64,000 nucleotides of DNA from a phage. Location of the stretch: sequence record PZ445446.1; one strand, 5' to 3'. This document shows, one piece after another, positions 23,226-40,312 of this stretch. Below the pieces are notes generated by a model. That model searched no databases, was not told where the DNA came from, and saw only the letters and a list, made by a program, of their open reading frames with translations. A program made the position numbers and the translations under genes. Within the stretch, counting starts at the first letter, position 1, and each line of letters starts with the position of its first letter.

Positions 23226-23234
23226 GGTTGGCAA

Positions 23235-24212: not shown

Positions 24213-24224
24213 TTATACTTGTTT

Positions 24225-24273: not shown

Positions 24274-24295
24274 TATATAAAAATTATAAAAACCG

Positions 24296-24324: not shown

Positions 24325-24379
24325 TTATCTCGAAGGGGGCAAAAGCGCCCACACAACAACCGGAAGAGAGGAAAACGCC

Positions 24380-24652: not shown

Positions 24653-24712
24653 TAAGATAATGACACGGGCCAAAAGGCCCACTAATCAGAACCGCACAAA
24701 GAGGTAAACATC

Positions 24713-24976
24713 ATGAAACGTCTTGATCAGCTCAAATTAGTTCAATATATGGCTTATCGTGTTCTTGAAGTCCAGAAAGGTAGCAAAAAAGAGGTTTGCG
24801 AGAAAGCTTATAAGATCTTCACTCGCAAAAAAGATGACTGGATGCTGCGCCAGACTAAAAAGGCTGACATCTTGGGGTACCTGGAAGAAGAGATCCGCCT
24901 TGAAGAGCAAGAAGAGATCCGCCGTAGTGAGGCAGATTATCAGGCAGCTTGGGAAAACTGGATGAGCAACAAATAA
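24713..24976 (+). CDS. hypothetical protein
   Basis: ORF track 87 aa; AAAGAGGTAAACATCATG leader after GGGCC..GGCCC hairpin. Confidence 0.55.
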   Translation: MKRLDQLKLVQYMAYRVLEVQKGSKKEVCEKAYKIFTRKKDDWMLRQTKKADILGYLEEEIRLEEQEEIRRSEADYQAAWENWMSNK

Positions 24977-25042
24977 TACAACAAGTTACATGGTCAGGGG
25001 CAATAAAGCCCCTTGATCACATAAAAATTATGCTATCCCTGG

Positions 25043-25071
25043 TTGACAGGGATCGGCAGTTTTGCTATATT
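25043..25071 (+). promoter_or_regulatory. sigma70-like promoter with palindrome around -35
   Basis: TTGACA 25043-25048 inside CCCTGG..CAGGGA inverted repeat; 17-bp spacer; TATATT. Confidence 0.45.
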
Positions 25072-25120
25072 CTTTTTTGAAGGGAAGTTGTAAGAAAATT
25101 AACTAAGAGGTAAAAACACC

Positions 25121-25540
25121 ATGAACATTAAATCTAATAATCCGGCATATAGCTTTGATAACGCTTTTTGTCACGGTCCGGCGGCGAAAGGATTCGAAAT
25201 CGATGGTAAACTAATTATTGTCAATGTTGACGGGGAAGAGGTTGCAGTATATCCGGTGGCAGACGTAAAAAGCCGTTTACAATGCCGCATGGATGTTACC
25301 GCCTATCAGCTTGATCCGGTCCGCATAGTTGCCCTGGTCCTGGAAGAAGAAATTAAAGCCATGCACCATAGCAACAGATTTATTGGTGACGCGCAGGATA
25401 ATATGAAAGTATGCCGCCATAAAGTTAATGAAGTGCTTAAAGAGTACGGCTATAAAGATCTTATGATCAAACGTGAGGAAAAATTCCGCTACCGTAACGA
25501 CCTGGCAAATCGGATTTTTGAAATATACGAATCATTATAA
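25121..25540 (+). CDS. hypothetical protein
   Basis: ORF track 139 aa; last plus-strand gene before convergence zone. Confidence 0.55.
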   Translation: MNIKSNNPAYSFDNAFCHGPAAKGFEIDGKLIIVNVDGEEVAVYPVADVKSRLQCRMDVTAYQLDPVRIVALVLEEEIKAMHHSNRFIGDAQDNMKVCRHKVNEVLKEYGYKDLMIKREEKFRYRNDLANRIFEIYESL

Positions 25541-25560
25541 TTTTTTAACTGAATTATCAA

Positions 25561-25584
25561 GGGGCTTAGGCCCCTTTCTTTTTG
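25561..25584 (+). terminator. intrinsic terminator
   Basis: GGGGCTTAGGCCCC hairpin followed by TTTCTTTTTG. Confidence 0.6.
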
Positions 25585-26189
25585 TCTGCTCTTCTCCTAC
25601 CATAAACGGCCCTACCTGGCAAGTGGAATAATTGACTAGCCATCAATCCCACATACTGTACAAATATACATGGAAAATAACTATTGCATAATTTTTCATT
25701 GTGTGGTAGCAAGTCCATTTTTACCCGTTTTCTCTCCCAAAAGTGCACGTAATGCCGCTATTGCACAAATTTTAACCTGATGCACATCTCCAATATCTTG
25801 TCAACAACTAAAAATCTTTATAAGTCATACACTTACACAGCATCGAAAGCGTGTTCTACGCGAAAAATCGAGTATAACTATAGCCGCCAGATCTCAGAAT
25901 TCACGTACGCACGCCATTCTATAGCCTGCAAAGTATTTATTCCAACCACAGAATAACGGAATAGTCAATACCTGCATAAAATAATTATTCGTGTAAACTG
26001 CATAACATAAATCAGCTCAGGTGTCAACATTTTTCGTAAACAGTCCGAAATTATCACGATGAGCTATCATAAACAGAGAAATATTTAGTCGTCTAATGTT
26101 TACTGTACATTACTATACTGACTGGAATCATTAGATGACTAAGAGAAAGATAAGAAATAATTAATAATGTAATTATTTTACCTGTAACA

Positions 26190-26500
26190 ATAAGGCAACT
26201 ATGCAAACGAATGGCATGGCGCGACGGAGTCGCGACATAATATAAAAGCAGTAACCATCACCCCCGTGATAGTTTGTCTGCAAACTATTAATCAGATCAT
26301 AGTTGCCTTGTATTTAGTTAATCATGACATAACAAGCAAGGCAACTATAGATCTTCTAATAGTTGCCCTGCTTTTATATTATGTCATAGGAACGCCCGAA
26401 GGGGTGACCTAGTCACCTGGTATAGCCAGCGAAAGATTATTAACTTGTCGATTGTTATCTTGTTAATTGTTTTCATGCAAACGAATGGCATGGCTTATCA
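26190..26500. repeat. cluster of inverted and direct repeats in non-coding DNA
   Basis: AAGGCAACTAT at 26192 and 26338 with inverted ATAGTTGCC(T/C)T at 26299 and 26359; 20-bp direct repeat ATGCAAACGAATGGCATGGC at 26201 and 26475. Confidence 0.6.
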
Positions 26501-28060
26501 TCTATGCGTGAACAGTGAGGCATGCAATAGTAACAATTGTTATTGTATCCAGTGTGTTGAGTATGCCCAGTGTGTCACTATTATGTCATATTATGTCACA
26601 GTATGTCAGACAAGTTTTCCTCCTCTTTGTCAAGTGCTGCATGAAAAATTTACAAGCTTGTATGGTAGCATTTTTGCGGCCCTGTTTACATTCAGTGTTG
26701 TATGTATAATCCTTGTTGTGTGGGCGTTTAGACGTCTGGACGGTCAGAAGTTTGCAGGTCAATATCTAATCTATTGGCTGCTAACTATATCCCCCACAAA
26801 TAATAAGAAATATAATTGTTATGTGCGTAAACAGTAACCCATGTTATCAATCCCTGTATGTATCGCCAGTGGTGCGCATAATGGGTATTATGTTAAATTG
26901 CCCGTAATGATAACAGTTCTCACAATGATAGGTATTCTCATTCATCCACACAAAATAGGTTGCAAATGTTGTGCCACTGTGTGAACGGCCTGGCCTATTA
27001 ATTTCTCTCACTGCCTCGATATTTGAGAATTGTTATAAGAATGAGAAGTATTCCCATTCCGTCCGCCTGGCAGCACTCCAGTAGCTACCGGCTCCTGACA
27101 GGGCAGCACTCCTGTAGGTCAGGTCAAAATCGTGGTAGAATTGGGCCTGTTCAGATATTTCTGACTGACTCTTCAGATCTGTGTGGGAAAAGCCAACCTC
27201 TCCGGAGGGGCAGGGGAGGTCAATTAAAAAATTTACGTGGTGTATGAAGCGCTCTTCAGGTAAGGCATGTATTATGGGATGAAACCCTCTTCAGGCAATG
27301 ATATTTGTGGGTGTGATATTTGCTGGAAAGCCAGATATGACGGGACTCCCGGCGGGGATGGGGTAGTACAGACAGGGAAAATATGGGGATGTAGTTGGGT
27401 AAATTGATCAGACAGGTAGAGTATGGAATATGTTACAAGTATGTTAAATAGGGAGGATGAATATCTGCAGGATTTGTGTGTAAAATCAAAGACTTAAGTG
27501 GTGTTGTGGTATTTTCTATAAATAATTCAAGTTTAATAGGTAATATTTGTCTCTATCCACTTTGTGTGGTAAACAGATTCAGATGAAATTGGTTTACAAG
27601 TGTATACATAATATACAAATTAAAGATACAAGAAACCCCCCTCCCCCTTCGGCTACCATTCACCTTTTCCTCTGACTGGTACTTAAACACTTATTCAGAC
27701 TCTTCAGGTTATCACCCATATATCATATGGCAGTGACTGGTGTCCTCCGGCCCCTCTTTCGTCACCCGTCCGCTTCGCCATGCTAATGCCATAGCCAATG
27801 GTTCGGTTGTTCACTCTGTTCACTCAGGTGTATCTCCATACCCCTTCAAACCGAAGAGAACAGAAAACCCGAATTACTCGGTAAAAGAAAAGAGAAGAAC
27901 TTAATTTTATCAGGATAGGCAAGAATGTCAAGGCATGACTGCTCACTAAACAAGCAAACAGTCATGTGTGGAAGGTAAGTGATTGTGGTGGTGGGAAATT
28001 TAGTTGAAAGATGTGTTATAGGTGCGCTTCCAGCACTTTGGCCGGGCAGCTAATTGTGTG

Positions 28061-28276
28061 TCAGTCCAGCGGTTCATCCTCTACTTCACTGAAATCAATG
28101 TTCATGGTCTCCTCCCAACCATCGATCTCAGCACAAGAGTGGAGTTCTTTAGGGTTTACTCCCAAAGCCTCAGCAACAGAGTCTATATTTAACACCTCTG
28201 GCAGGTATGATTCATCGAATTCAAGGTAAATCAGGCCACGAGTGTTGTCAGCTCCACCAAATATCTCTATCTTCAT
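28061..28276 (-). CDS. small acidic protein
   Basis: ORF track 71 aa; GAGGAG RBS; starts MKIEI; D/E-rich. Confidence 0.5.
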   Translation of the reverse strand: MKIEIFGGADNTRGLIYLEFDESYLPEVLNIDSVAEALGVNPKELHSCAEIDGWEETMNIDFSEVEDEPLD

Positions 28277-28397
28277 GAAATCTCCTCTGGAAATGAGAGT
28301 GTGAACAGGGTTTTATACGTTCTAATGCACAGGAATTATACACGTTTGCCTCTTCAGGCCATGCTTTAGCATGAGGAACCTGTGTGGGCTCGGTGCT

Positions 28398-28610
28398 TCA
28401 TAGTCTACCACCTCTGAACTCTTCGTGCTCAGGCATAATAGAGAACCAGATATCTACGATGTCCTCCCACGTCAGGTCATCAGCCTCAGGATCTGTCTGG
28501 GACGAAGATGAAGAGTCCTCAGAATCTAAGTTTTCCTCTTTAACTGGCTCATCCAAGGGACATATGGTCACTCCTTCGGATGTCTCTTCAGATGCATGTG
28601 TGTTGATCAT
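28398..28610 (-). CDS. small highly acidic protein
   Basis: ORF track 70 aa; strongly D/E/S-rich. Confidence 0.45.
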   Translation of the reverse strand: MINTHASEETSEGVTICPLDEPVKEENLDSEDSSSSSQTDPEADDLTWEDIVDIWFSIMPEHEEFRGGRL

Positions 28611-28970
28611 GTTCCCCCCGTGAGTATTCCGGCAACAGCCGCTATGGAAGTAATGATCATCAGGATCACCACTAAAACTTCAGACAATGTTCTCATTGTA
28701 TATTCCATATTCTCCAAACTGTGTGTGGATACTATCACGGGAGCGGTAATGTGTCAACAGCAACGCCGCGAGGGTTTGGTTAAAATCCGAGCGTATGGTG
28801 ATTTGGGTCAAAACGGACGTGCGTTCTCGCTACGCTCGAAAGAGAGACTTGTTTGTAGAAAGCTCTTAAACGCTCTGTAACGAGATTATCTGTCCAAGGT
28901 ATGCAATCGTGCACCAGATAAAGAAAAGGACGCCACAGAGCGTCCTAGGTGTCTTAAATTTGATATTTTG

Positions 28971-29282
28971 CTATACCCATGAGGGCTTATCAAGGTTGGA
29001 GTAGCTGAAAGGTGTCAAAAGGTGACTGTCAAAATCCCTCAAACTATCCAAATCTTTTTCCTCGTCCTGACACCATCTGTGCCTACATTTATTGTTGTAG
29101 TGCATAGAATGCATAGCGTTCTGCAACTTAACAGGTACAAGTGATTCAGGAGTAGATAGTATTGTTGGGTATGCCAGAATCACCTCAAACAGTGGAAACA
29201 CATCGAAACTAAAGTCTATCTCTGCAGAGGTTGATGGCATATAGGAGTATTTAGCCGCCTTTGTAGACATAATCCACCTCAC
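28971..29282 (-). CDS. hypothetical protein
   Basis: ORF track 103 aa; start uncertain. Confidence 0.35.
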   Translation of the reverse strand: MRWIMSTKAAKYSYMPSTSAEIDFSFDVFPLFEVILAYPTILSTPESLVPVKLQNAMHSMHYNNKCRHRWCQDEEKDLDSLRDFDSHLLTPFSYSNLDKPSWV

Positions 29283-29605
29283 ACAGGTTTGATAATACCT
29301 TTACCGAATAATTCTTCGTATCTAATCTTATCCGGATCCCACTCTTGGATAATTTCGAAGACAATATCCAACCCAGGGATAATCACTTCTCCAGTGTCAA
29401 GTTTGGCAAGAACAAAACCAGAAGGCTGAATGGTTTCCCAGTTGCGCCGATTGGAATAGAAGACCTCGAAAATATCGCCGACCTTTATCTGTTGATCAAG
29501 ATGTTCAAGATTCTCTTTCATATAGACGCAGCGGATTTTTCGTGCAGGCCAGAGACCACCTGCATCACGTTCATTTAGCTCTTTTACAGTAATCGGTATA
29601 CCCAT
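29279..29605 (-). CDS. hypothetical protein
   Basis: ORF track 108 aa. Confidence 0.5.
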   Translation of the reverse strand: MGIPITVKELNERDAGGLWPARKIRCVYMKENLEHLDQQIKVGDIFEVFYSNRRNWETIQPSGFVLAKLDTGEVIIPGLDIVFEIIQEWDPDKIRYEELFGKGIIKPV

Positions 29606-29626
29606 CTCAAATCTCCTTCATAGATA

Positions 29627-29653
29627 GTAAAAAGAGGGGCCCAAGCCCCCCTC
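29627..29653 (-). terminator. intrinsic terminator candidate (minus strand)
   Basis: GAGGGGGGCTTGGGCCCCTC hairpin followed by TTTTT on minus strand. Confidence 0.45.
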
Positions 29654-29660
29654 TTTGTCA

Positions 29661-29966
29661 TTATTCTACAGAGCGTTTGAACAGAATGTCTGCCTCAGAC
29701 ATGTGCTCAACCTCTTCTTCGATTTTAGCGCGACGTTTTTCAGCCTCATAGCGAATATCGAACTCGGTAGCCACCAGAGATTTGATGAATTTAGGAGAAT
29801 ACAGGTGATCCTGCTTCTCAACGAGAATGATATCCTTAATGGCATCTTTCAGATCTTTAATCTGAAGTTGGAGTTCTACCAGTTCTTCGATTGTTTTGCG
29901 AAGGCGATCACGCTCTGCAGTGTCAGAAGGAAGAGAGGTGAACAGTTCAACTTTAGATTTAGCCAT
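29661..29966 (-). CDS. hypothetical coiled-coil protein
   Basis: ORF track 101 aa. Confidence 0.5.
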   Translation of the reverse strand: MAKSKVELFTSLPSDTAERDRLRKTIEELVELQLQIKDLKDAIKDIILVEKQDHLYSPKFIKSLVATEFDIRYEAEKRRAKIEEEVEHMSEADILFKRSVE

Positions 29967-29994
29967 AGTAAGAGTCTCCTTATGTTGTTTTAAA

Positions 29995-30312
29995 TTAACG
30001 TTCTACAAAAATACCGTTCAGTTCAATAACCAGGAATTTCTGGTCTTCACTATCGTCTCGTGCCAGCACCTCACAGACGTATCGGTCATCCCCATCATCA
30101 TCGCAGTCAAATACAAGACTGAGGACTTTATCATGGTAAACCTTCGCCACTACCGCCTCGTAAGTATTGCCGATTGTGAATCCAAGATAATCTCCGATGC
30201 ATTTGACAACAACATGGTCTCCAGCATTTAAGTCAATCTTCGTCATTACTGCGCTCCTTGGGTAATAATACTGTATGTAAAACTTTAACCAGAGATGTGA
30301 ATAACGCCCCAA
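29995..30312 (-). CDS. hypothetical protein
   Basis: ORF track 105 aa. Confidence 0.5.
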   Translation of the reverse strand: MGRYSHLWLKFYIQYYYPRSAVMTKIDLNAGDHVVVKCIGDYLGFTIGNTYEAVVAKVYHDKVLSLVFDCDDDGDDRYVCEVLARDDSEDQKFLVIELNGIFVER

Positions 30313-30401
30313 AACACACCGATAGCGCTAAAACAGACAAGGCCATCATTAAAGCTTCAGTAAAATCAGTCATTCCTCACCTCTTGTTAGTCACTGTACT
30401 A

Positions 30402-30665
30402 TCATTTATCCTTGTCGTCAAGAACTTTTTTAAATCTTTCAGGGATATCTCCCGTTCTTAGATAGTTCATGACCTCGCAAGGTTCCCACTTGAATTTCTT
30501 ACAGAGCAGGGCGGCTGAGATTGTTTCATTGCGAAAAGAAAGGATATTAATATCCCACTCTGAGAACCCCAACTTCCGAAGGGTAGCTACAGAAATCCTC
30601 ACCGCAACCCAGCAGCAAAAACATGCAACAAACGCCACTGCTACAACCCACATCAGGATGTTCAT
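30402..30665 (-). CDS. hypothetical membrane protein
   Basis: ORF track 87 aa; N-terminal TM WVVAVAFVACFCCWVAV. Confidence 0.5.
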   Translation of the reverse strand: MNILMWVVAVAFVACFCCWVAVRISVATLRKLGFSEWDINILSFRNETISAALLCKKFKWEPCEVMNYLRTGDIPERFKKVLDDKDK

Positions 30666-30754
30666 ATAAGCACCTTACTGAAATACAAGACACAGTGTTA
30701 AGGTTACTGACCAGCAAATAATTAACAGTGCCGTTGCAACCTTTGCAAGATTTA

Positions 30755-31042
30755 TCATAGTGCCTCTAAGATTTCATATCCTTCGGGTCGGAATACAAGC
30801 CACTCCGTGGCTCCGTTTGGTCGATACGCTTTATACAGAACAACCTGGTCTCGGCACATGCACATGGCTACATAGTTTTCATCCACACCTGCAGCCTGCA
30901 TTGCATCTTCTTCTCCGGCAACTGCTTTGCTTACAACTTCCTTGGTAGGCAGGTGTGCGATCAGCTCGTCACCATCATTAATTCCAAAATGGCTGAGTTC
31001 GCCGTTGGTATCTTTAATCTTAATCTTAACCAGATCTTTCAT
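30755..31042 (-). CDS. small hypothetical protein
   Basis: ORF track 95 aa; translationally coupled array. Confidence 0.5.
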   Translation of the reverse strand: MKDLVKIKIKDTNGELSHFGINDGDELIAHLPTKEVVSKAVAGEEDAMQAAGVDENYVAMCMCRDQVVLYKAYRPNGATEWLVFRPEGYEILEAL

Positions 31043-31371
31043 TAGTCTTCCCCCAGGTTCAAAGGTCCTAAGATTTCATATGCCAGATTAGAAGTTACAA
31101 GAGGGTCTTCTGCGTCTTTAGTATTATACCACCCGTGAATGACCAGAGTCCCACTTTGTTTCATGTCCAACTGGAACTCTTCTGCCGTTTCCTCATCCAG
31201 CTCCAAGATTTCCATAAGGTATTTGATGTTAGGGAGGTATGCAGCTGTTACAGTCCCCTCTACCAGACCTTCAGGCCAACCTACATCTGGATGACAAGTA
31301 GGAACCAGGTTGGTCAGCTTAATGGTGTACGCTTTTTCTGCACGAGCCTTCAGTAACGGGTCAATCTTCAT
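31042..31371 (-). CDS. small hypothetical protein
   Basis: ORF track 109 aa; overlapping start/stop. Confidence 0.5.
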   Translation of the reverse strand: MKIDPLLKARAEKAYTIKLTNLVPTCHPDVGWPEGLVEGTVTAAYLPNIKYLMEILELDEETAEEFQLDMKQSGTLVIHGWYNTKDAEDPLVTSNLAYEILGPLNLGED

Positions 31372-31721
31372 TATTCGTCCTCCTCTTCGGTACCTGCTTC
31401 CAGTAATAAGTTAAGAATATCTTCTGCACAAGGTTCATAGAACTCTTGGCCTTCATTATCGATGATTTTGTAGTCATCTCCACGAATAATCAGGGGATCA
31501 CTATCAAAATTATCGAGACCTTTAACAACGACAACACGATCGATTGCCATCATTGTAAGAACTTTATCGACATCTTCCTCTGCTACACCATACTGCAGCA
31601 GAATGTCTTTGGTAGGAGGAACAGCATCCACCACAACGCCGTTACCAAAACCTTCTGGAAGTTTAGCTAAAATATCTTCCGGAACCACATTCACATCAAA
31701 ACCGGTAATTTCTACTTTCAT
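31371..31721 (-). CDS. small acidic protein
   Basis: ORF track 116 aa; starts MKVEITG; acidic C-terminus. Confidence 0.5.
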   Translation of the reverse strand: MKVEITGFDVNVVPEDILAKLPEGFGNGVVVDAVPPTKDILLQYGVAEEDVDKVLTMMAIDRVVVVKGLDNFDSDPLIIRGDDYKIIDNEGQEFYEPCAEDILNLLLEAGTEEEDE

Positions 31722-31982
31722 TTACAGCACCTCTTCGTCAACTACTTCATAAAAATGGCCTGGGATTGCAATAGCGTTCTCACCTTCACCTACAAACACA
31801 GTTCCGTCAAGAATCAACATCATAAGAATTTCTGTAATATCCTCTTCCGGAACGTTGCCAAAACCTTTAATCAGCTCGTAGGTTGGAATATTTACCTCTA
31901 AGATGTCACCATCTTTAGAACGGAAATCAACACCGTCCTGAATCTCTGCCGTTTCAAGGTTTTTCAATTTAATCTTCATCAA
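31722..31982 (-). CDS. small hypothetical protein
   Basis: ORF track 86 aa. Confidence 0.5.
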   Translation of the reverse strand: MMKIKLKNLETAEIQDGVDFRSKDGDILEVNIPTYELIKGFGNVPEEDITEILMMLILDGTVFVGEGENAIAIPGHFYEVVDEEVL

Positions 31983-32058
31983 TCGGTCCCCTGTCTTGTT
32001 AAGATGAAGGTATTATTTCACACAGGGTTGGCGTTGTCAACACCTGTGTGCAAGAAAA

Positions 32059-32454
32059 TTACTGAAACAGTGCGGATAAATTACCTTCTGGTGGGAACTT
32101 ATCTGCCAAAAACGGTGTTAGCACAGTAGCCTTCTGAAGATCTGGGGTCCACTCGTTGTTCAGAACATCCCAGTAGTACGCAATGTTGCTGTGTGGGTGC
32201 CGCATTACGAACTTTTTCCCTTCGTAGTCATCTGAAACCTCTACAGAAGAAATAACAACAGAATCTTCAAGGGTTTCTTCATAGAAAGATCCACCTTCAA
32301 ATTTCCAACGAGATGCAAGAGCCCCTGCCTTGAACGCTGCAGATAACGGACTGTCGGCAAGAACATACATTTCTTGCACTCTGTCGCTGCGATCTTTGCT
32401 TCTTACGTTGTATACAGTATCTGAGCTATACTCAACACGGTATAGGCTTACCAT
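32059..32454 (-). CDS. hypothetical protein (paralog of 34261..34659)
   Basis: ORF track 131 aa; shared HP.S...YW.....WTP segment with paralog. Confidence 0.55.
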   Translation of the reverse strand: MVSLYRVEYSSDTVYNVRSKDRSDRVQEMYVLADSPLSAAFKAGALASRWKFEGGSFYEETLEDSVVISSVEVSDDYEGKKFVMRHPHSNIAYYWDVLNNEWTPDLQKATVLTPFLADKFPPEGNLSALFQ

Positions 32455-32786
32455 TACCGCACCTCCTCAATAACTTCCACATCTGAACCTACCACAAATG
32501 CAAAAGGACAGGTTTCATGAAAGATATCCGGATCGCCGCCAAGCTTGCTAACAATTTCTCCACCACTAATAAACACAAGCTCACCGATATTCATCAGATT
32601 GCTGAAATAGTACCCATAATGATTAAAGAATGCAGCAGGGTCAGGTAGACTAGTAGCCTCAAGCACTACATCAGTTGAGGTTACTTTCTTATCATAACCT
32701 CTCGCCTTTTGAGATGCAAGATCTGCAGAATCCTCAGGCGACCGGAGATGCACAGGAATTGTTTCACCAATAAAGCGTACTTTCAT
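32454..32786 (-). CDS. small hypothetical protein
   Basis: Track ORF 32454..32813 trimmed to internal ATG (MKVRFIG...). Confidence 0.4.
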   Translation of the reverse strand: MKVRFIGETIPVHLRSPEDSADLASQKARGYDKKVTSTDVVLEATSLPDPAAFFNHYGYYFSNLMNIGELVFISGGEIVSKLGGDPDIFHETCPFAFVVGSDVEVIEEVR

Positions 32787-32790
32787 ATTA

Positions 32791-33054
32791 TCACCCAACA
32801 ACCATAGCTTCAAAAGGGGTCATGAACGAATAAACGGCATCATCATCTGCTTCAGGGAATGCTCCCAAAGACTTCATGTCTGAGCCCTTGACAAATACAA
32901 GGTTTTGATCAAAAGCTTCTTGAGGATCAATCCGATACATATTTCGTAGAATATCGCCTACCTCCTCATCAAGAGGTGAGTATGCTGTGCACGTTTTTCC
33001 GATCAAGCTTTGAGAATCAGGGTATCCACCTGAAGTTTTAAAATAAACAATCAT
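32791..33054 (-). CDS. small hypothetical protein (distant member of MKVK family?)
   Basis: ORF track 87 aa; FVKGSD..LGA resembles LVKGKDLLAAGA of paralogs. Confidence 0.45.
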   Translation of the reverse strand: MIVYFKTSGGYPDSQSLIGKTCTAYSPLDEEVGDILRNMYRIDPQEAFDQNLVFVKGSDMKSLGAFPEADDDAVYSFMTPFEAMVVG

Positions 33055-33145
33055 ATAGTATCACCTCTGGTAAGAGATTGGGATTCCTTTCCCACAAATA
33101 ATTACAAACCTTCCTTATCGAGGAAGTATGCTAATCCAAGCAAGA

Positions 33146-33415
33146 TTATTCCTCTACAATCTCATACACATCCGGAGTTACAATCAACTCTTCTCCGTTA
33201 CCCGGTGCAACAAACACCACCATGCCTTCAGGTGTGTGCTTTTTAGCCATCTCGATAACATCTTCTCGCAGAGCTGGCTCCATCAGATCAAAACCTTCAC
33301 CCAGGGCATCACGAACCACCTTCATATAGTCAACTGGTTGTGCTTCGACAATCATACCTTCAACCAGTCCACAGTTTTTGTCTGCCAGCTCAGTTTTGAA
33401 TAATTTAATTTTCAT
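33146..33415 (-). CDS. small acidic protein
   Basis: ORF track 89 aa; starts MKIKLFK. Confidence 0.5.
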   Translation of the reverse strand: MKIKLFKTELADKNCGLVEGMIVEAQPVDYMKVVRDALGEGFDLMEPALREDVIEMAKKHTPEGMVVFVAPGNGEELIVTPDVYEIVEE

Positions 33416-33552
33416 TTAGAGGCCTCCTCAATTATTTGATATTAATAGCCGTAACCTAACACATTAACTACAACTGCGATTGCAAACATAATTTCAAAGC
33501 ATGCAATCTCTACATTTGGGACTAATTTCTTGATCACACCCATTGTAGCACC

Positions 33553-33870
33553 TCATTCTCTAAAGTCAATCTTTACTTTGCCTTTCCCCTTACCTTTCTT
33601 TCCACCGCATTTAGCCAGTTGACGTGCTGCAACATCTACCATACGGTCAGTTGCCTCGTAAGCATCACTGCCTTTAGCTTTGGCAATAACTTCTTTTCCA
33701 GAATTGTCAAAAATGAACGCCATAACTTCCTGGTGATCATTTTCAACTTTTACACTCACACGTGCATAGTTGGCAGAGGGATGCAAACGCTCCAGCTTAG
33801 ACATTTTGTGGGAAATGAAAGACACCATACCTTCAGTGATTTCTACGTTGCCAGTGATTTCAATTTGCAT
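33553..33870 (-). CDS. hpf: ribosome hibernation promoting factor / RaiA-like (HPF)
   Basis: MQIEITGNVEITEGM..KLER...V.VKVE...ARQLAK closely parallels E. coli HPF (MQLNITGNNVEITEAL...KLEQ...VLKVEK...ARQLTKHKDK); 105 aa. Confidence 0.8.
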   Translation of the reverse strand: MQIEITGNVEITEGMVSFISHKMSKLERLHPSANYARVSVKVENDHQEVMAFIFDNSGKEVIAKAKGSDAYEATDRMVDVAARQLAKCGGKKGKGKGKVKIDFRE

Positions 33871-33952
33871 AACGTGTTCCTTTTAAAGAAGAGGGAACCA
33901 AACCCTCTTTGAAAACAATGATACTAAATCTGAAGCGTTGTGTCAACAGTTT

Positions 33953-34243
33953 TTACAGATTGTTGTCGATAGTTTTTAAAATATCCACAGCAAGATCTGC
34001 CATTTTTCGAACATACTCTGCAAACTCAACAGGATCCTTGATCAAAGAATTCACAGGGTCGTACCCTAGAGCGTTCAAAATGGCTGCAGCATCTACAACC
34101 TTCTCATCATTTGCGAAGATCTCTCCATCAAACTTGTAGGTCCATTTTGAGTCAATCTTGGCAGGGAATGATTGGTCAACGCTTGTTACACCATCCTTTT
34201 TAAACGCTCCGGTGTTATCAGTGTCTAGAACTAAATCCATCAT
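33953..34243 (-). CDS. hypothetical protein
   Basis: ORF track 96 aa. Confidence 0.5.
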   Translation of the reverse strand: MMDLVLDTDNTGAFKKDGVTSVDQSFPAKIDSKWTYKFDGEIFANDEKVVDAAAILNALGYDPVNSLIKDPVEFAEYVRKMADLAVDILKTIDNNL

Positions 34244-34260
34244 GTTAGTACCTCACCGTT

Positions 34261-34659
34261 TCAGTTTAGCTTTTCTTCAACAACCCCATAGCTCGGGACA
34301 GAGTCAAGAGCTTTCTGGTTTAAAAGTGGTGTAGCAGAATCTGCAAACGGTGTCCAAGTTTTTGTTCTGGCGTTCCAGTAATGCTTCACTCTGGAATCTG
34401 GATGCACTATAACAAAAACTTTTTCACTTGTCAACACATTAATTTCTTCCACACCCCTGCTGATAATTTCTCCGTCATATCCCCCGGTCTGGTATCCTTC
34501 GTACCAGGTTCTTGCATAGGCATAGCCAGCCTGCCAGCATGCAGCCTCCTCCGAGGTGGAGACTACGTAGAAGTCTTTCTCAAATTCTGGGATACGCCCT
34601 TGCTTTACGCTCCAAGCTCCGCGAATTTTCATTGTAACTTTGAATAGTTTATTTTTCAC
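34261..34659 (-). CDS. hypothetical protein (paralog of 32059..32454)
   Basis: ORF track 132 aa; paralog alignment. Confidence 0.55.
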   Translation of the reverse strand: MKNKLFKVTMKIRGAWSVKQGRIPEFEKDFYVVSTSEEAACWQAGYAYARTWYEGYQTGGYDGEIISRGVEEINVLTSEKVFVIVHPDSRVKHYWNARTKTWTPFADSATPLLNQKALDSVPSYGVVEEKLN

Positions 34660-34671
34660 AACGGTTACCCA

Positions 34672-34926
34672 TCACAGTTCTACAATATCTGCATCTGACC
34701 CTGCCCCAAAGGCATAATAGGACTCTTCCCCGAAATAATATTCCGGTGCACCAGCAGCGATCAGGTCTGATCCCAAAATGAATACCACGTTGTGGCCTAC
34801 ATAGCTGTGATTTTGCCGCACAGGATCATCCCACGGCAACCCTTCGAAGTATACCGCAGGGACGACCTTTCCTTTCAGGAAGGATTGCCCCAAGTAGACG
34901 TTAGAATCAAGAATTTTAACCTTCAT
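34672..34926 (-). CDS. small protein, MKVKxLD paralog family
   Basis: ORF track 84 aa; MKVKILD...GKVV...DLIAAGA. Confidence 0.55.
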   Translation of the reverse strand: MKVKILDSNVYLGQSFLKGKVVPAVYFEGLPWDDPVRQNHSYVGHNVVFILGSDLIAAGAPEYYFGEESYYAFGAGSDADIVEL

Positions 34927-35143
34927 GATCGTCCTCCACTATCTCTACATCCTCACCTAGGGCAAAGTTGTAGGTCCACTGACTGTCAAAGCATTCCTGA
35001 GATGCACCAGCGGCAATAAGATCTGCCCCTTTTATTTTTAAAAGGTCAGGGTAATCTTCGTTAGGGACAGCAGTAAACACTTTCCCTACTAAAGGCTCCT
35101 GACCAATATAGAAGCTTGAATCTAAAACTTTAACTTTCATCAA
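34916..35143 (-). CDS. small protein, MKVKxLD paralog family
   Basis: ORF track 75 aa; MKVKVLD...GKVF...DLIAAGA. Confidence 0.55.
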   Translation of the reverse strand: MMKVKVLDSSFYIGQEPLVGKVFTAVPNEDYPDLLKIKGADLIAAGASQECFDSQWTYNFALGEDVEIVEDDHEG

Positions 35144-35427
35144 CGGTCTCCATCAGGTGGTTGTGGGACGTAAACACTGTTACGAATATCGTCCGCAGTA
35201 TAGTAATAAGTGTCTCCAACCCTATCTCTGGCTGCAATGTACTCTGCTATACCAATAAGTGCCATTGATTTGGTGGCGTATCTTCCCCACTCGTTAGCTC
35301 CCCAGTAGAATTTAGACCAGTAGGGAATAATACCGAACAAATATACCTTTTGACGAACTTCCCAGTAAGTGCCTTTTCCGACAAGTTTAAACTCTACTTC
35401 ACTACTGTTAATCTTTTTCATTATCAA
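35140..35427 (-). CDS. hypothetical protein
   Basis: ORF track 95 aa; ATGA overlap. Confidence 0.5.
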   Translation of the reverse strand: MIMKKINSSEVEFKLVGKGTYWEVRQKVYLFGIIPYWSKFYWGANEWGRYATKSMALIGIAEYIAARDRVGDTYYYTADDIRNSVYVPQPPDGDR

Positions 35428-35720
35428 TCTCCCTCTACCGTGGTCGGATTGTCAGTAAGAAATTGAGCATTGGCTGGAGGCACGCCTGACATTTTCCACA
35501 CAACCATAAGTTTGTAACCAGGAACTCTATTAAGTGCAGATCGAGTAGAGTTTGTGCACGTATACTTTCGCTTTCCAAACCCGTTCTCCATCATAATCCA
35601 GTACCCAGTATCTTTGTCACCAGGTATCGGTAGACCACCTTCATCAACCCACTGAATGGACCACGGCACGATGGCTACAGCTTTATATTTAAACTTTTTA
35701 AACCACTCAAAAAGTTTCAT
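35424..35720 (-). CDS. hypothetical protein
   Basis: ORF track 98 aa. Confidence 0.5.
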   Translation of the reverse strand: MKLFEWFKKFKYKAVAIVPWSIQWVDEGGLPIPGDKDTGYWIMMENGFGKRKYTCTNSTRSALNRVPGYKLMVVWKMSGVPPANAQFLTDNPTTVEGD

Positions 35721-35815
35721 AATTCAGCCTCGCATAGACATAATCACTATAAACAGGCAAACAATGAATCCGAATGCCACGCCACCCATAAACGTTAATA
35801 TTGATGCAATCATAG

Positions 35816-36001
35816 TCAATCAGCCTCGCTTGGCAACTCTTCTACCTTAACATGCCGAAAAGTGTTACCGTAATGGTTGATCCATGACATCAGCTCGCTT
35901 TCTTGCTCTTCCTCTGGGATGAACTCTCGAATGCTGACAAGTTTTAAGAAAACCCAATCACAATCTGCACCCATTCTACCAGACAGGCAATAGTGCTTCA
36001 T
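35816..36001 (-). CDS. small hypothetical protein
   Basis: Track ORF 35816..36079 trimmed to internal ATG to avoid overlap. Confidence 0.35.
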   Translation of the reverse strand: MKHYCLSGRMGADCDWVFLKLVSIREFIPEEEQESELMSWINHYGNTFRHVKVEELPSEAD

Positions 36002-36020
36002 AAAAACCCCCCCACCTGGT

Positions 36021-36215
36021 TTAGAATATTGCTTCTTCCATTGCACCTGAGAGCAACAAAGAGGTGATCTGGCTAACATTCATCTCAGACTCTACTTCCT
36101 CCCCTTTGAAAGGTTCGCGGCAGAATAGGACTGTTTCAGGACTTTTACTTCGAACAGTATAATACAAATCATTCAATGTGTTGTAGTAATAAGTGTTAAA
36201 ACGTAAGTTTTTCAT
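36021..36215 (-). CDS. small hypothetical protein
   Basis: ORF track 64 aa. Confidence 0.4.
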   Translation of the reverse strand: MKNLRFNTYYYNTLNDLYYTVRSKSPETVLFCREPFKGEEVESEMNVSQITSLLLSGAMEEAIF

Positions 36216-36499
36216 TTTCTAGTCCCCTTCTTAGATTTTTGTGTAGAAACGCTTTCTGCAATACGAGACAAACGTTCTTCTGAAGCCTTGCCTATTCCAG
36301 GTTTTTTGAGTGGGTTATCTTTATGACCACAATCCAATTGGATATTGGATACCTCTCCAACCTTGTAAGTCAATTCTAGCAAAAGGTTGTCGTCCTTGTC
36401 AAATGTTCTTACGATAAATTTTTTATCGTTCTCCTGAACTTCGTATCGGGTACCCGCAGTATACAGCATGGTGCCATCCGCATAGGATATCCAGATCAT
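36212..36499 (-). CDS. hypothetical protein
   Basis: ORF track 95 aa; ATGA overlap. Confidence 0.5.
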   Translation of the reverse strand: MIWISYADGTMLYTAGTRYEVQENDKKFIVRTFDKDDNLLLELTYKVGEVSNIQLDCGHKDNPLKKPGIGKASEERLSRIAESVSTQKSKKGTRK

Positions 36500-36843
36500 T
36501 GAACCTCCTTCTGCTGCAACAGCATTAACTCTTTGTTGGAGATTTTTACTGCTGTTTTTATTGTTCCATCTTCACGAAACCACGACCAGAACTCTACAGT
36601 GTCCCCACTGTCAAGCAAAGCATACCCGTGGTAGAAGTCTTTGTCCTTAGACAGTTTCTCATCTATGTCTGCATCGACACATTCGTGATCCATAGCATTT
36701 TGCCTGAATGCATCGGTTATACCAATGCACGCCTTGCTCTCAAGACTGGTATATCCGATATCTTTTAATTCAGTTTCCCAAGTCCAGTACCCTATAAAAG
36801 CTAAAACAGCTACCCACATTAATAACGTTTTAATCTTTGGCAT
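36496..36843 (-). CDS. hypothetical secreted/membrane protein
   Basis: ORF track 115 aa; N-terminal hydrophobic LLMWVAVLAFIGYW. Confidence 0.5.
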   Translation of the reverse strand: MPKIKTLLMWVAVLAFIGYWTWETELKDIGYTSLESKACIGITDAFRQNAMDHECVDADIDEKLSKDKDFYHGYALLDSGDTVEFWSWFREDGTIKTAVKISNKELMLLQQKEVQ

Positions 36844-36905
36844 TCTCTCTACCTCTTTCTTAGTTTATTTCACTATGGCACATCCTTTGTGCCATATCTC
36901 AACCA

Positions 36906-37367
36906 CTACTTAAATAGTAGTCCAAAATAGTGCAAAATTAACAGAAGTTGAACTACACCTAGTGCAACGGCGAGTATGTTAATCTTAGAATCGAAAAACT
37001 TCTTAACTTTTACTCTAAAAGGTTCCTTAATGTCCTTTACGATCCTATTTATAGATGATTTCATATCCCTGATTACCATCCTAAACATTAGAGACGGATC
37101 TTCCTTCTCTGTAATAGAATCGAAAACATACTCTCTTCGGTCATAAGGACCTCCAGATCTGCGTATTAACCTCTCCACAGAGACCTCGTACGACACACCT
37201 GTAACGTAATCATCTATGATAAGTAGTGACGGGTCTTTATCGTCCAAGGGTATTAAAGTTATCTTTCCAGATTTTGTTAAAATTTCTCCTTTTTCAAGCA
37301 AGGTGTACCAATGCTCTCTACCAAGATTGTTGAGGCACGTTTTTACATATTTAACAAACATCGTCAC
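36906..37367 (-). CDS. hypothetical protein with C-terminal TM anchor
   Basis: ORF track 153 aa; C-terminal ILAVALGVVQLLLILHYFGLLF. Confidence 0.5.
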   Translation of the reverse strand: MTMFVKYVKTCLNNLGREHWYTLLEKGEILTKSGKITLIPLDDKDPSLLIIDDYVTGVSYEVSVERLIRRSGGPYDRREYVFDSITEKEDPSLMFRMVIRDMKSSINRIVKDIKEPFRVKVKKFFDSKINILAVALGVVQLLLILHYFGLLFK

Positions 37368-37567
37368 CCCTCATCGCACGTCTGATATAACCACTCTATG
37401 AAATCTTGATACCATTCGCCCTCTGAGCGCTCCGTAGGCCAATAATCTTCACCCTCTCGTGCATTAAAATCTGAGTATTCAACTTTCCACTCCTTTACCA
37501 GCTCGTGGAGAAGGTTTTCAGCCTGCTCTAAAGATTTATTTTTTGCCATTGCTGTCTCCTTTTTCAA
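37364..37567 (-). CDS. small hypothetical protein
   Basis: ORF track 67 aa; ATGA overlap. Confidence 0.45.
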   Translation of the reverse strand: MKKETAMAKNKSLEQAENLLHELVKEWKVEYSDFNAREGEDYWPTERSEGEWYQDFIEWLYQTCDEG

Positions 37568-37768
37568 GATAGTTATACATCAGAACTGCACCACCTAAGA
37601 TGGCTACCAGTAACAATATCCCAGATAGCATCTCAATAAACATGGCTTGAAACACTGGAAGGTCTCCCTAAATTAACGCACCATTTTAAATACATGCTCT
37701 TTTCCCATAAAGGTGCCTGGCTAAGATCTGCGTAGAACGCAATCTCTTTAAGAACAGTATAGATAGTT

Positions 37769-37996
37769 TTAGGTGCGGTCTCCATCCCTACTCTCCTTCC
37801 TGATATTCTTGTAGTAATCAACTAGGCACATTATTACGATGAAGATAACAACAGGCCAAAAAGGTGCAGCAGTGATGATGGTGATAAAATCATCAAACTT
37901 CACCCTTCGTCTGGACACGATGCATACACCTGTCAAGAATACCGCTGTTATAACGGACATTACCAGGTAACCTATTAGCACAACATTTATACTCAT
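37769..37996 (-). CDS. small membrane protein (two TM segments)
   Basis: ORF track 75 aa; two hydrophobic stretches. Confidence 0.5.
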   Translation of the reverse strand: MSINVVLIGYLVMSVITAVFLTGVCIVSRRRVKFDDFITIITAAPFWPVVIFIVIMCLVDYYKNIRKESRDGDRT

Positions 37997-38026
37997 TGGT
38001 CCTCCCTTTGTAGGTTAAATTGTATA

Positions 38027-38560
38027 CTACAAATGGTCGCTGAGGGTGTCAAGAAAATTATCCCGTTCTTTCTCAGAGTTTTCATGTGTGTAGCTGAAAA
38101 ACATATCGAGAATAACCTTATTGATATATTCCAGCTCCTCTGTGTTCAGATGCTTAGCAGGATCTACAATGACATCCCAAATATCATACAGACCACACTC
38201 ATGATACCCATAACGCCACTCAATTGTCAAGCTGAGCGGCAAATCTTTACCTTCACAAACAACCTTCCATCTACATATGTTGGTATCTGGTCGTACCTGT
38301 GCACGGTAAACCTGCACAAAATCCAATTTGAATTTGAGGTACTCGTCATACAATTTAAGCACAAAGCTCTCGATTTGTGGAGACACTTTTGCAGCAAACT
38401 GTGCGTATTTGTACTTGCACTGGATGATCTTTCTACGTTTTGCAGTTAAATTTTTTGCCGCCAGTTGTTCTTCAGTGTATCTCCACCTACGATCAACAAA
38501 CGCAACAGGGTCTTTGTCCCCATAGAGGTCTTCCCAGTTAATCAGAAGCATACCTGTCAC
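38027..38560 (-). CDS. hypothetical protein
   Basis: ORF track 177 aa. Confidence 0.55.
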   Translation of the reverse strand: MTGMLLINWEDLYGDKDPVAFVDRRWRYTEEQLAAKNLTAKRRKIIQCKYKYAQFAAKVSPQIESFVLKLYDEYLKFKLDFVQVYRAQVRPDTNICRWKVVCEGKDLPLSLTIEWRYGYHECGLYDIWDVIVDPAKHLNTEELEYINKVILDMFFSYTHENSEKERDNFLDTLSDHL

Positions 38561-38790
38561 TCCTCCACAACTTCAAGGCCTTTACCGCCTCGCTCTGGCA
38601 GATTACTTAAAGATAGGTAATACATATAATCAGGAGAGATCCTGCCAGACTCTGCACCTGCAGCTAGTAAATCCTTCCCTTTAACCAGGACAACATTCTC
38701 GTTTGCAGATAGCCGTTTTGCTTCCACAATTTTACCAACACAGTCAACCAAGGAAGGGTACCCTAAATCTGTAAGAAATTTAACTTTCAT
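38557..38790 (-). CDS. small protein, MKVKxLD paralog family
   Basis: ORF track 77 aa; MKVKFLTD...GKIV...DLLAAGA. Confidence 0.55.
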   Translation of the reverse strand: MKVKFLTDLGYPSLVDCVGKIVEAKRLSANENVVLVKGKDLLAAGAESGRISPDYMYYLSLSNLPERGGKGLEVVEE

Positions 38791-38827
38791 GCTACCTCCT
38801 ACCTACCGTCCCTGGTAAGATAAATTA

Positions 38828-39226
38828 TTACTGAACAGAGCGCGGTGCTGGGAAGGATAACTCTTCTAAAGAGAAGATTTCATTTCCTACCACCCAAGTT
38901 GCTGGGTCATCTGGATCAACAGGTTGGATAATCATTACCTCATCCGCCTCGCACACACGTTTCCCACCCATAGTAGCGTCAGCCACTAACATACGCGGCT
39001 CTTCAGAAATGCACAGGTAGCCACCTCGGCCCACTGTTCCTTCCACGGGATCCTGCCCTTTGACCACAATGAATACCTTCTCTCCTGTGGCGATATTACT
39101 TTTCACACTAACAGTTTGACCAACTTTAGATGTACCGATCTTGGTGGCTTCAAACATTAAATCCCGAATTACTGTTGCATAGTTGCCGGACACTTTCTTA
39201 CCTTCTTTAGTAATCTCAATCTTCAT
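38828..39226 (-). CDS. hypothetical protein
   Basis: ORF track 132 aa; starts MKIEIT. Confidence 0.5.
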   Translation of the reverse strand: MKIEITKEGKKVSGNYATVIRDLMFEATKIGTSKVGQTVSVKSNIATGEKVFIVVKGQDPVEGTVGRGGYLCISEEPRMLVADATMGGKRVCEADEVMIIQPVDPDDPATWVVGNEIFSLEELSFPAPRSVQ

Positions 39227-39495
39227 AATCTAGGCTCCTTAAATGAATCTATGTAATCAATTAAATCCCAAGCATCCCTATGACCTGTCAGAGGGTATAC
39301 TTCTCCAAGAGGGATCATAGCAATAAGTCTATCAAAAACCCAATCTGGACGCAACATTTTATGGTGATACTCCCACTCACCTTCTACAGACTTTTTCTGA
39401 GTGATCAGGATCTCTGTGTAGTGTTTCGCCTGTCTTGAGTAGATTGAGAATGACTTGTACATAAATGGCCCCCTCTTGTTGAAAACAAAATACAC
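39223..39495 (-). CDS. hypothetical protein
   Basis: ORF track 90 aa. Confidence 0.5.
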   Translation of the reverse strand: MYFVFNKRGPFMYKSFSIYSRQAKHYTEILITQKKSVEGEWEYHHKMLRPDWVFDRLIAMIPLGEVYPLTGHRDAWDLIDYIDSFKEPRL

Positions 39496-39497
39496 TA

Positions 39498-39782
39498 CTA
39501 CCAGGTCACTGTCAAGTAGGCAACTGTGTTATTTTTCTCCGGAGAGATGCCAACAACATCCACCTGCAGACCTCCTGCCCTCAAATCCCCAACAATGTGT
39601 GGGAAGTAGTCTGAGAGGTGTGATGGGAGATTTATCGAAAATCCACATCCCAGAAAGCCTGCTAACGCTTTATTTTGTATCTCCCCAACAATCGCATCAT
39701 AAATAGAGTTAAGCTCGTCAGGAAGCGTTACAGGACGTTTTAGCGCTAACTGGTGCAACTTGTCCTTAGCACTCATTTTCAT
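39498..39782 (-). CDS. hypothetical protein
   Basis: Track ORF 39498..39851 trimmed to internal ATG that forms ATGA overlap with upstream stop. Confidence 0.4.
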   Translation of the reverse strand: MKMSAKDKLHQLALKRPVTLPDELNSIYDAIVGEIQNKALAGFLGCGFSINLPSHLSDYFPHIVGDLRAGGLQVDVVGISPEKNNTVAYLTVTW

Positions 39783-40312
39783 TTCAAGTCTGCCTCTGGT
39801 GGTGCCAACCACATAAATGGCGGCAAGTCTAGACGGTTTTTCTTGTCCCATACAAAATATGCATATGCCTGCCCATCCGTTCTACCATTAGATTGGAATG
39901 ACGGACGCTTAGATATTGTGATCACAGTGGTAGGTGCATTATCAAGCCACCATTCAAATCTGGCCTTGCTTTCCAGAAAATTAAGACGCAAAAGCATAAT
40001 AACTACGTCGGCATCTTTCAACGCCTTGTCCACAAACTCACGAGCCAGGCTGTACGGCGGGTTGGTGATAATACAGTCAACATGGTTGTATTCTGTATTC
40101 AGATAGTCAACACCTTCTTGGATTTCTCCCCATGCAGATCCTAACGGCATACGGGAGTAGAACACACCTGAGGCACTATTCCTGCAAGGCTCTAAGTAGG
40201 TCCAGTCTTCTGGGAACGGAATAAGGTCATACAGCCCTTCTGCACACCACTCCGGTGTCACATACTCATCGTAGGCGTTACGTTGTTCATCAGGTTTTCT
40301 AGCACAAGTCAT
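39779..40312 (-). CDS. putative small N6-adenine/N4-cytosine-type methyltransferase
   Basis: DCIITNPPY motif IV-like (NPPY); 177 aa. Confidence 0.45.
   Translation of the reverse strand: MTCARKPDEQRNAYDEYVTPEWCAEGLYDLIPFPEDWTYLEPCRNSASGVFYSRMPLGSAWGEIQEGVDYLNTEYNHVDCIITNPPYSLAREFVDKALKDADVVIMLLRLNFLESKARFEWWLDNAPTTVITISKRPSFQSNGRTDGQAYAYFVWDKKNRLDLPPFMWLAPPEADLK

Follow-up and report, generated by a model that had tools for sequence, protein, structure and literature searches.

Early host-takeover genes are known in the phages T4 and SPO1. The locus analysed here, an array of about 40 small genes on the minus strand at 28061-39782 of a 64 000-nucleotide stretch of phage DNA (sequence record PZ445446.1; 'the window' throughout), is like those clusters in having dozens of packed genes of less than ∼130 amino acids, host-type promoters and products that are mostly ORFans, in being dispensable in the laboratory, and in that some members have anti-defence or shut-off roles. 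There is, however, no sequence relationship to the T4 early accessory regions or the SPO1 host-takeover module, only one of 42 array proteins has an above-threshold Pfam domain, and, unlike the T4 and SPO1 clusters, the array has a gene content that is nearly invariant within its genus.

The closest described system is the small open reading frame (ORF) region of phage rV5, of which the array is one arm (92269-104013 in rV5). Across ∼120 Vequintavirus genomes this is the same locus, with the same gene order, adjacent non-coding gap and promoters. The rV5 paper (Kropinski et al. 2013, PMC3606486) describes the region as '88 mainly small ORFs', and a search of its text found no mention of paralogs or duplication. 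The region itself is known and of an ordinary type, and our analysis reveals no new type of genetic system. What is new are the gene families, their fold, a repeated A-A-B gene order and a link to transposon data. rV5-like phages are among the most frequently isolated Escherichia coli phages and are therapy candidates, yet ∼40% of their genes are tiny ORFans. One arm of this dark matter is here sorted into three families, two of them with a predicted fold. We consider it probable that an rV5-like virulent phage has here one arm of its non-essential small-gene region, and that the genes serve interaction with the host.

Over its full length, the 12-kb sequence around the array shares 99.0% identity with Escherichia phage vb_EcoM_bov10K2; its identity to the BASEL phage WalterGehring (Bas51) is 98.9%. 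In GenBank, 122 phage records match it, all rV5-like and of the genus Vequintavirus. This 99% match, together with the synteny of PhoH, a ClpP-like protease, the methyltransferase and the array, supports the identity of the locus. The array is one of two convergent small-gene arms, both of which converge on an ORF-free stretch at 25541-28060, and the sign of the GC skew flips near position 28000. The gene set (minus strand, from 40312 down to 28061) was drawn up from Shine-Dalgarno scores, the longest ORFs and a close relative's annotation. It comprises 42 genes: first a Dam-like methyltransferase, then 41 small ORFs that encode 29-174 amino acids. About 40 of these ORFs are credible genes. 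An earlier note on this DNA had reported an array of about 35 small, translationally coupled ORFs; the array and the ORFs it named are where it placed them, on the minus strand, but the count was too low.

28061-39782, minus strand: array of ∼40 small genes, defined from the ORF list and the choice of starts and Shine-Dalgarno sites; lies 3' of the Dam-like methyltransferase gene
39779-40312, minus strand: Dam-like N6-adenine methyltransferase, upstream boundary of the array and conserved synteny anchor

Three paralog families and a repeated gene order

The 42 proteins were compared by all-against-all blastp and phmmer, and hidden Markov model (HMM) scores were set against those of 4200 composition-matched shuffled decoys. 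Three paralog families stand up statistically: A with five genes, B with two and C with four to five.

38557-38790, minus strand: g38790, family A, 77 amino acids; E 1e-6 to g35140, phrog_5009 at E 8e-36
34916-35140, minus strand: g35140, family A, 74 amino acids, first gene of module 1; E 5e-15 to g34926; the protein modelled for family A
34672-34926, minus strand: g34926, family A, 84 amino acids, second gene of module 1; 11-nt overlap with g35140; assigned by blastp and PHROGs
34261-34632, minus strand: g34632, family B, 123 amino acids, third gene of module 1; E 3e-9 to g32454, phrog_7379; orthologue of bas54_0157
32791-33054, minus strand: g33054, family A, 87 amino acids, first gene of module 2; HMM E 1.5e-7; orthologue of bas54_0152
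32454-32786, minus strand: g32786, family A, 110 amino acids, second gene of module 2; HMM E 1.8e-5, long insert between strands 2 and 3; orthologue of bas54_0151
32059-32454, minus strand: g32454, family B, 131 amino acids, third gene of module 2; start overlaps the g32786 stop; orthologue of bas54_0150
33146-33415, minus strand: g33415, family C, 89 amino acids, charge -10; HMM E 1.2e-5, 0 of 4200 decoys as high; the protein modelled for family C
30755-31979, minus strand: acidic run of four genes, each abutting the next: g31979, g31721, g31042 (family C) and the marginal member g31371; net charges -7 to -21

Family A starts from the three ORFs at 34672, 34916 and 38557, which the earlier note had grouped by a shared motif and which are paralogs by blastp and PHROGs alike. 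The blastp match between g35140 and g34926 has an E-value of 5e-15 at 42% identity, and that between g38790 and g35140 an E-value of 1e-6. An HMM built from the three recruits g33054 (E 1.5e-7) and g32786 (E 1.8e-5), with none of the 4200 decoys scoring as high. All five window genes match the profile over their full length and carry the motifs MKVK.L, GK, G.DLIAAGA, Y.F and E(V/I)VE. Family B consists of the two ORFs at 32059 and 34261, previously singled out for shared HP.S, YW and WTP motifs; the motifs are present in both, and g32454 and g34632 align over ∼120 amino acids with E-values of 3e-9 (blastp) and 7e-11 (phmmer). Family C had not been named by the earlier note. Its core is the pair g31979 and g31721 (E 3e-4 by blastp, 1e-5 by phmmer), to which iteration adds g31042 (1 of 4200 decoys as high) and then g33415 (E 1.2e-5; 0 of 4200), with g31371 as a marginal member (0-6 of 4200).

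In PHROGs, g38790, g35140 and g34926 belong to phrog_5009, and g32454 and g34632 to phrog_7379, both of unknown function. Other end-to-end matches, in a range of E-values from 1e-32 to 1e-76 overall, are to phrog_12359, 12155, 12794, 13920 and 13661, all labelled 'unknown function'. PHROGs separates g33054 and g32786 from family A and leaves each family C member alone, whereas the profile searches used here join them. A recurrent MK(I/V) start, also remarked on in the earlier note, is borne out: MK(I/V)x(I/L/F) opens nine array genes, seven of them in families A or C, compared with 1 of 54 genes in the other arm, and in the structural models described below it forms the first β-strand.

The order A-A-B occurs twice, as g35140-g34926-g34632 and, 1.2 kb downstream, as g33054-g32786-g32454. 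Smith-Waterman z-scores between the two modules are collinear: g32786 scores best with g34926 (7.7), g33054 scores higher with g35140 (6.7) than with g34926 (4.6), and B pairs with B. No DNA-level similarity between the modules is left. Segmental duplication of an A-A-B unit is likely on these protein comparisons, though their support for it is modest. The adjacent genes g35140 and g34926 score much higher with each other (z 21.5), which fits later homogenisation, and there is direct evidence for this process in a chimera, P0014. This 70-amino acid protein consists of g35140 residues 1-47 and the C-terminus of g34926, joined at the conserved DLIAAGA motif, and on two phage contigs its gene stands in place of both g35140 and g34926. 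It is the expected product of unequal crossing-over between adjacent paralogs. The three families, the chimera and the collinear module order together uphold the earlier proposal that small proteins here have duplicated and diverged. Another natural chimera, P0093 (98 amino acids, on a metagenome contig), combines an unrelated N-terminal half with the C-terminal half of the g31371 orthologue.

Predicted fold, reach and conservation of the families

An AlphaFold2 model of g35140, made with a 37-sequence alignment, has a mean predicted local distance difference test (pLDDT) score of 93 and a predicted template modelling (pTM) score of 0.80. It is a five-stranded small barrel in which the single short helix is the conserved G.DLIA motif. 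The model of g33415 (34-sequence alignment, pLDDT 91.6) has the same strand order, with three helices between strands 2 and 3, and in the family A alignment the insertions of g34926, g33054 and g32786 fall at the same position as these helices. Five-stranded barrels with SH3 and KOW structural matches were thus obtained in models of both families, and we are confident in predicting that families A and C are SH3-like small β-barrels. Their likeness to known SH3-like, KOW and PsaE barrels is one of fold only, with identities of 4-24% and no common motif, and the three-helix insert between strands 2 and 3 sets family C apart from these. A profile-profile comparison of A with C (hhalign) gives a weak match of 7.5% probability (P 0.0047) limited to the N-terminal 29 columns; a common origin of the two families is plausible. 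A Foldseek search of viral predicted structures (BFVD) returned uncharacterised proteins only.

The families were also sought in metagenomes. A word-indexed search of 5.8 billion clustered proteins found 42 clusters for family A, 54 for family C and 6 for family B, and nearly all of the matches lie on rV5-like phage contigs of ∼130 kb. An exhaustive HMMER search of 1.84 billion representatives extends family A to 90 clusters at E ≤ 1e-3. Most of these are stand-alone proteins of 65-80 amino acids with the same motif pattern; the relatives P0103, P0105, P0129, P0141 and P0158 carry two or three copies of the domain in one polypeptide, and distant members occur on contigs of 1-2 kb. One branch, P0031/P0032 (75 amino acids; 309 member sequences for P0031), is found in E. 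coli lambdoid prophages (contigs L002-L004), where the P0031 gene (10001-10228 of L002/L003) lies among ∼10 small genes between the Q antiterminator and holin. By tblastn, a distant family A member matched Vequintavirus and two Vibrio phages only, and family C matched Vequintavirus only.

Within the genus the array is under strong constraint and its orthologues share 90-100% identity; both point to real genes. Ratios of non-synonymous to synonymous substitution (dN/dS, Nei-Gojobori), calculated against orthologues in five diverged Vequintavirus genomes, are 0.02-0.2 for nearly every gene and 0.03-0.16 for all members of families A, B and C. The exceptions are the very acidic g28610 (0.3-1.1) and g28914 (28780-28914, minus strand; 0.5-1.8). 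The latter is probably not a protein-coding gene, because its dN/dS is near 1, it has a GTG start and it lacks a Shine-Dalgarno sequence; it lies 3' of a terminator-like hairpin. Several relatives' records carry it as an annotated ORF.

Across eight genomes almost all array genes are present at 80-100% identity and every family copy is retained. Divergent alleles are seen for g38551 and g37996 (51-58%), g35720 (62-66%), g35421 (∼75%) and g28610 (64-73%). At least 80% of the array is covered in 115 of the 122 records, at 90-99% nucleotide identity; phage V18 has several array deletions, and one block of seven genes is missing from phage Bas54.

35424-37361, minus strand: seven-gene block, g35720 to g37361, absent from Bas54/MaxBurger and present in 116 GenBank records

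Between genera the picture is different. Mydovirus (AV124) and Seunavirus (EC152) have PhoH, the ClpP-like protease, the methyltransferase and a long run of small genes in the same order, but tblastn in these two genomes recovered, apart from the methyltransferase, no more than five array proteins (g39782, g39462, g37549, g37361 and g35720). No family A, B or C member was found by tblastn of AV124 and EC152, nor when the families were sought in the Mydovirus and Seunavirus arrays and in the other small-gene arm of the window. Of the presence/absence variation among related phages that the earlier note had proposed as a check, there is little within the genus, where the genes are conserved; between genera, however, the content is almost wholly replaced.

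Expression, conditional requirement and likely role

Among the 41 junctions of the array, 21 are overlaps (14) or have a spacing of 0-5 nt (7), and the other gaps are 8-121 nt. Translational coupling, which the earlier note had ascribed to the whole array, thus holds for short runs of genes; overlap or a spacing of ≤5 nt was not found at every junction. The runs are separated by gaps with promoter-like and terminator-like sites. Perfect TTGACA σ70-like sites lie in the larger gaps 5' of g33870, g31979, g28708, g37996 and g39462, and terminator-like hairpins lie 3' of g29966, g29270 and g33415. The array has 15 copies of TTGACA on its coding strand, compared with two on the opposite one, and of the best 15 promoter-like sites 14 are on the coding strand, many within large gaps. 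Besides the promoters listed below, the predicted ones include sites at 38052 and 39515. Two of the sites, P144 and P150, are annotated as σ70-type promoters in the rV5 RefSeq record.

33918-33946, minus strand: σ70-like promoter, TTGACA-17-TATCAT, in the 82-nt gap 5' of the HPF gene; P144 in the rV5 record
33553-33870, minus strand: g33870, homologue of the HPF/RaiA ribosome hibernation factor; PF02482, E 1.8e-12, 48.3 bits against a gathering cut-off of 23.7
32012-32040, minus strand: σ70-like promoter, TTGACA-17-AATAAT with TG, in the 79-nt gap 5' of g31979; P150 in the rV5 record
29635-29651, minus strand: terminator-like G+C hairpin with T run, 3' of g29966; a hairpin on the plus strand too
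28927-28946, minus strand: terminator-like hairpin, 3' of g29270
28729-28757, minus strand: σ70-like promoter, TTGACA-17-TAGTAT with TG, 5' of g28708

Evidence on function comes from the HIDEN-SEQ preprint (10.1101/2025.11.20.689424), which reports a saturated transposon library of the Vequintavirus Bas54 (MaxBurger, MZ501093). Bas54 genes were mapped to the window at 86-100% protein identity, with at least 94% for all but two. On E. coli K-12 all array genes, bas54_0135 to 0170, are non-essential or intermediate (10.1101/2025.11.20.689424). For bas54_0140, the preprint reports a knock-out with a specific sensitivity to DS-28, which is predicted to be a defence system of the uropathogenic E. 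coli CFE311 (10.1101/2025.11.20.689424). DS-28 is essentially undescribed in the literature. The window copy, g29270, would be expected to counteract DS-28, as is shown for this 99%-identical orthologue.

28971-29270, minus strand: g29270, 99 amino acids, 98 of 99 identical to bas54_0140

In the data of the same preprint, insertions in bas54_0150, 0151 and 0152 are lost on a clinical isolate (log2 fold change -6.77, -6.17 and -7.16, respectively; q=0), and those in bas54_0157 are reduced (-2.14, q=0). By orthology, at protein identities of 95-100%, these are g32454 (B), g32786 (A) and g33054 (A), the second A-A-B module, and g34632, the other family B gene. The remaining family A genes (0158, 0159 and 0166) and the family C genes 0146-0149 are unaffected, and bas54_0153 (g33415) has a change of -2.78 that is not significant (10.1101/2025.11.20.689424). 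A search of the main text of the preprint found no mention of 0150-0152 or 0157. We assign the table to CFE311 because bas54_0063 and 0140 are depleted in it, as the text links these to CFE311.

These data suggest the following scheme. Host RNA polymerase would transcribe the array from several σ70-type promoters in short translationally coupled units. Most products would be single-domain proteins of 30-130 amino acids, at least nine of them in the SH3-like families A and C, and the SH3-like products may bind host proteins stoichiometrically, not enzymatically. The families would have arisen by old duplications within the lineage, giving a run of family C genes and probably the A-A-B segmental duplication, after which each copy would have been held by purifying selection while unequal recombination between neighbours continues. 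The genes would be dispensable on E. coli K-12, as shown for Bas54, and a subset needed on particular natural hosts. From their transposon depletion, g33054-g32786-g32454 and g34632 appear to be the best candidates for further strain-specific inhibitors of immunity. Their orthologues are selectively required on a uropathogenic isolate, and they offer a lead to a new counter-defence or host-adaptation factor. The specific prediction is that family B acts as a counter-defence or adaptation factor for particular hosts, either alone or together with its two family A partners. A bolder extension, which we regard as decidedly unlikely, would have families A and C and the ∼90 metagenome clusters of family A form one undescribed superfamily of SH3-like phage inhibitors, with A-A-B as a multi-subunit inhibitor of a so far unidentified defence system of E. 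coli, each of the two triplets being specialised for a different variant of it. The suggestion of a counter-defence or host-takeover cassette in the earlier note is in part supported, by bas54_0140 acting against DS-28 and by the conditional depletion of the A-A-B and B orthologues, the evidence for A-A-B being pooled transposon depletion only.

Several points weigh against reading the array as a set of host-interaction genes. The prophage homologue of family A, between Q and holin, lies in a late region and not an early one; in many lambdoid phages this late-transcribed position houses accessory genes. We found no literature on the timing of transcription in rV5-like phages, so that 'early' rests on promoter-like sites, and the rV5 authors saw such sites throughout the genome (PMC3606486). 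An SH3-like fold is so general that it indicates neither target nor function. In the copy of the transposon data analysed, the resampling sheets S6 and S7, for K-12 versus CFE303 and versus CFE311, carry identical numbers, so that the host is assigned only through bas54_0063 and 0140; the depletion of 0152 and 0151 may be polarity on 0150, because the three genes are translationally coupled; and a conditional need on the clinical isolate is no proof of anti-defence, as other host differences could explain it. Variation within the genus is very low, unlike that of anti-defence hotspots with fast turnover, and Vequintavirinae are 'exceptionally susceptible' to restriction-modification (RM) systems and commonly targeted by abortive-infection systems (PMC8594841). 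Not all members need be intracellular effectors either: g37361 is the orthologue of the rV5 'virion structural protein ORF 133', which is reported to be abundant in virions. The same gene (36906-37361) encodes a hydrophobic C-terminal segment and is conserved across genera, and it is among those absent from Bas54.

The best-surviving alternative, possible though unlikely in our estimation, is general host takeover, in which the products would silence or reprogram host functions in transcription, translation, replication or the envelope, much like the early host-takeover genes of T4 and SPO1, and the need for some of them on some hosts would reflect physiological differences between strains. 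An HPF homologue with a promoter of its own, encoded midway along the array, would suit this role, as would the seven short proteins with a strongly hydrophobic segment, consistent with membrane insertion, and the non-essentiality of the genes on K-12; the high conservation within the genus fits fixed host targets better than an arms race. Yet experiments link one member to a particular defence system, the depletion of 0150-0152 is strain-specific and all-or-none, which is more typical of a discrete barrier, and the array content is almost wholly replaced between genera that infect similar enterobacteria.

DNA mimicry, raised in the earlier note for the acidic members, is very improbable. On this reading the acidic proteins, mainly family C with g28276 and g28610, would mimic the charge of DNA and sequester restriction enzymes or nucleoid proteins, as Ocr and ArdA do. 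The acidity itself is real: 30 of the 42 proteins are net negative, a pI below 4.5 is found for 29% of the array compared with 4% of the larger window ORFs, and net charges reach -21 for g31721, -17 for g28610 and -16 for g28276. The SH3-like fold is compatible with mimicry too, as CarS of Myxococcus is a DNA mimic with SH3 topology. But 28% of the proteins of the unrelated other arm also have a pI below 4.5, so that small accessory proteins of phages seem to be acidic in general. No array protein has a Pfam match to Ocr or ArdA (E ≤ 0.05-0.1), and PDB sequence searches with families A and B gave chance-level matches only, none to a DNA mimic. Ocr and ArdA have folds unlike SH3-like barrels, and the modelled A and C proteins are compact β-barrels and not elongated; individual proteins other than those modelled, such as g28276 and g28610, may still be mimics. 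The net charge of family A is only -1 to -10, and its conserved positions (Y11, G19, K20, A24, G38, D40, G45 and Y57) are mostly non-acidic. Family C, the most acidic, shows no depletion in the conditional screen, and the phage group is, as noted above, sensitive to restriction. The likeness to Ocr and ArdA thus amounts to being small, acidic and presumably early, and the idea of DNA mimics in the array is not upheld.

We give almost no credence to neutral or selfish filler, that is, paralogs left by duplication without separate functions and screen signals caused by polarity on one or two real genes, since, although all array genes are dispensable on K-12, seven are missing from Bas54 without obvious harm and coupling makes polarity plausible, dN/dS is well below 1 for every member of families A, B and C, every copy is retained at 80-100% identity in all the genomes of the genus that were examined, 116 records have the block that Bas54 lacks, and the two unlinked B copies are both depleted.

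Neighbouring sequences and annotation

The other arm (6581-25540, plus strand) carries 54 small hypothetical genes downstream of DNA polymerase and has no member of families A, B or C. It has adjacent paralog pairs of its own, p6581 with p6862 (E 8e-6) and p7739 with p8024 (E 2.5e-9), and several genes of the corresponding Bas54 arm, bas54_0106, 0123, 0126, 0127 and 0132-0134, are also depleted on the clinical isolate (10.1101/2025.11.20.689424).

The stretch between the arms, 25541-28060, is ORF-free and AT-rich (GC 0.35-0.39). At 26185-26376, repeats of 15-19 nt that share the core ATAGTTGCC(T/C)TG are clustered in both direct and inverted orientation. A perfect inverted repeat of 18 nt (26234-26251 / 26368-26385) and an exact direct repeat of 20 nt (26201 / 26475) are also present in the stretch. 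Rfam and tRNA scans gave no match here or anywhere else in the window. The rV5 paper treats the stretch as non-coding (PMC3606486), and in Bas54 it has no transposon insertions (10.1101/2025.11.20.689424). On this evidence the stretch may hold an essential cis element, perhaps an origin of replication with iteron-like repeats.

A Pfam search with 37 array proteins gave a single above-threshold match, PF02482 in g33870. The GenBank labels 'putative glycosidase', 'HNH homing endonuclease' and, twice, 'sigma 54 modulation factor' for array genes have no Pfam support. The second 'sigma 54 modulation factor' label falls on the g33415 orthologue (33146-33415), and 'ATP-dependent protease La type I' is a further unsupported label; the affected spans are 38027-38551, 33146-33415 and 35490-37330. 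These product names look like propagated annotation. Eighteen GenBank records (MG0656xx) titled 'Campylobacter phage', with Campylobacter jejuni as host, are 95-98% identical to the array, and their host attribution looks doubtful.

Directly after the methyltransferase gene, g39782 (39498-39782) has 40-45% identity to its counterparts in Mydovirus and Seunavirus. Its orthologue bas54_0169 has mean insertion counts of 1.8 and 0.5 in liquid culture, with 42% of TA sites hit, and of all array genes g39782 may matter most for fitness on K-12.

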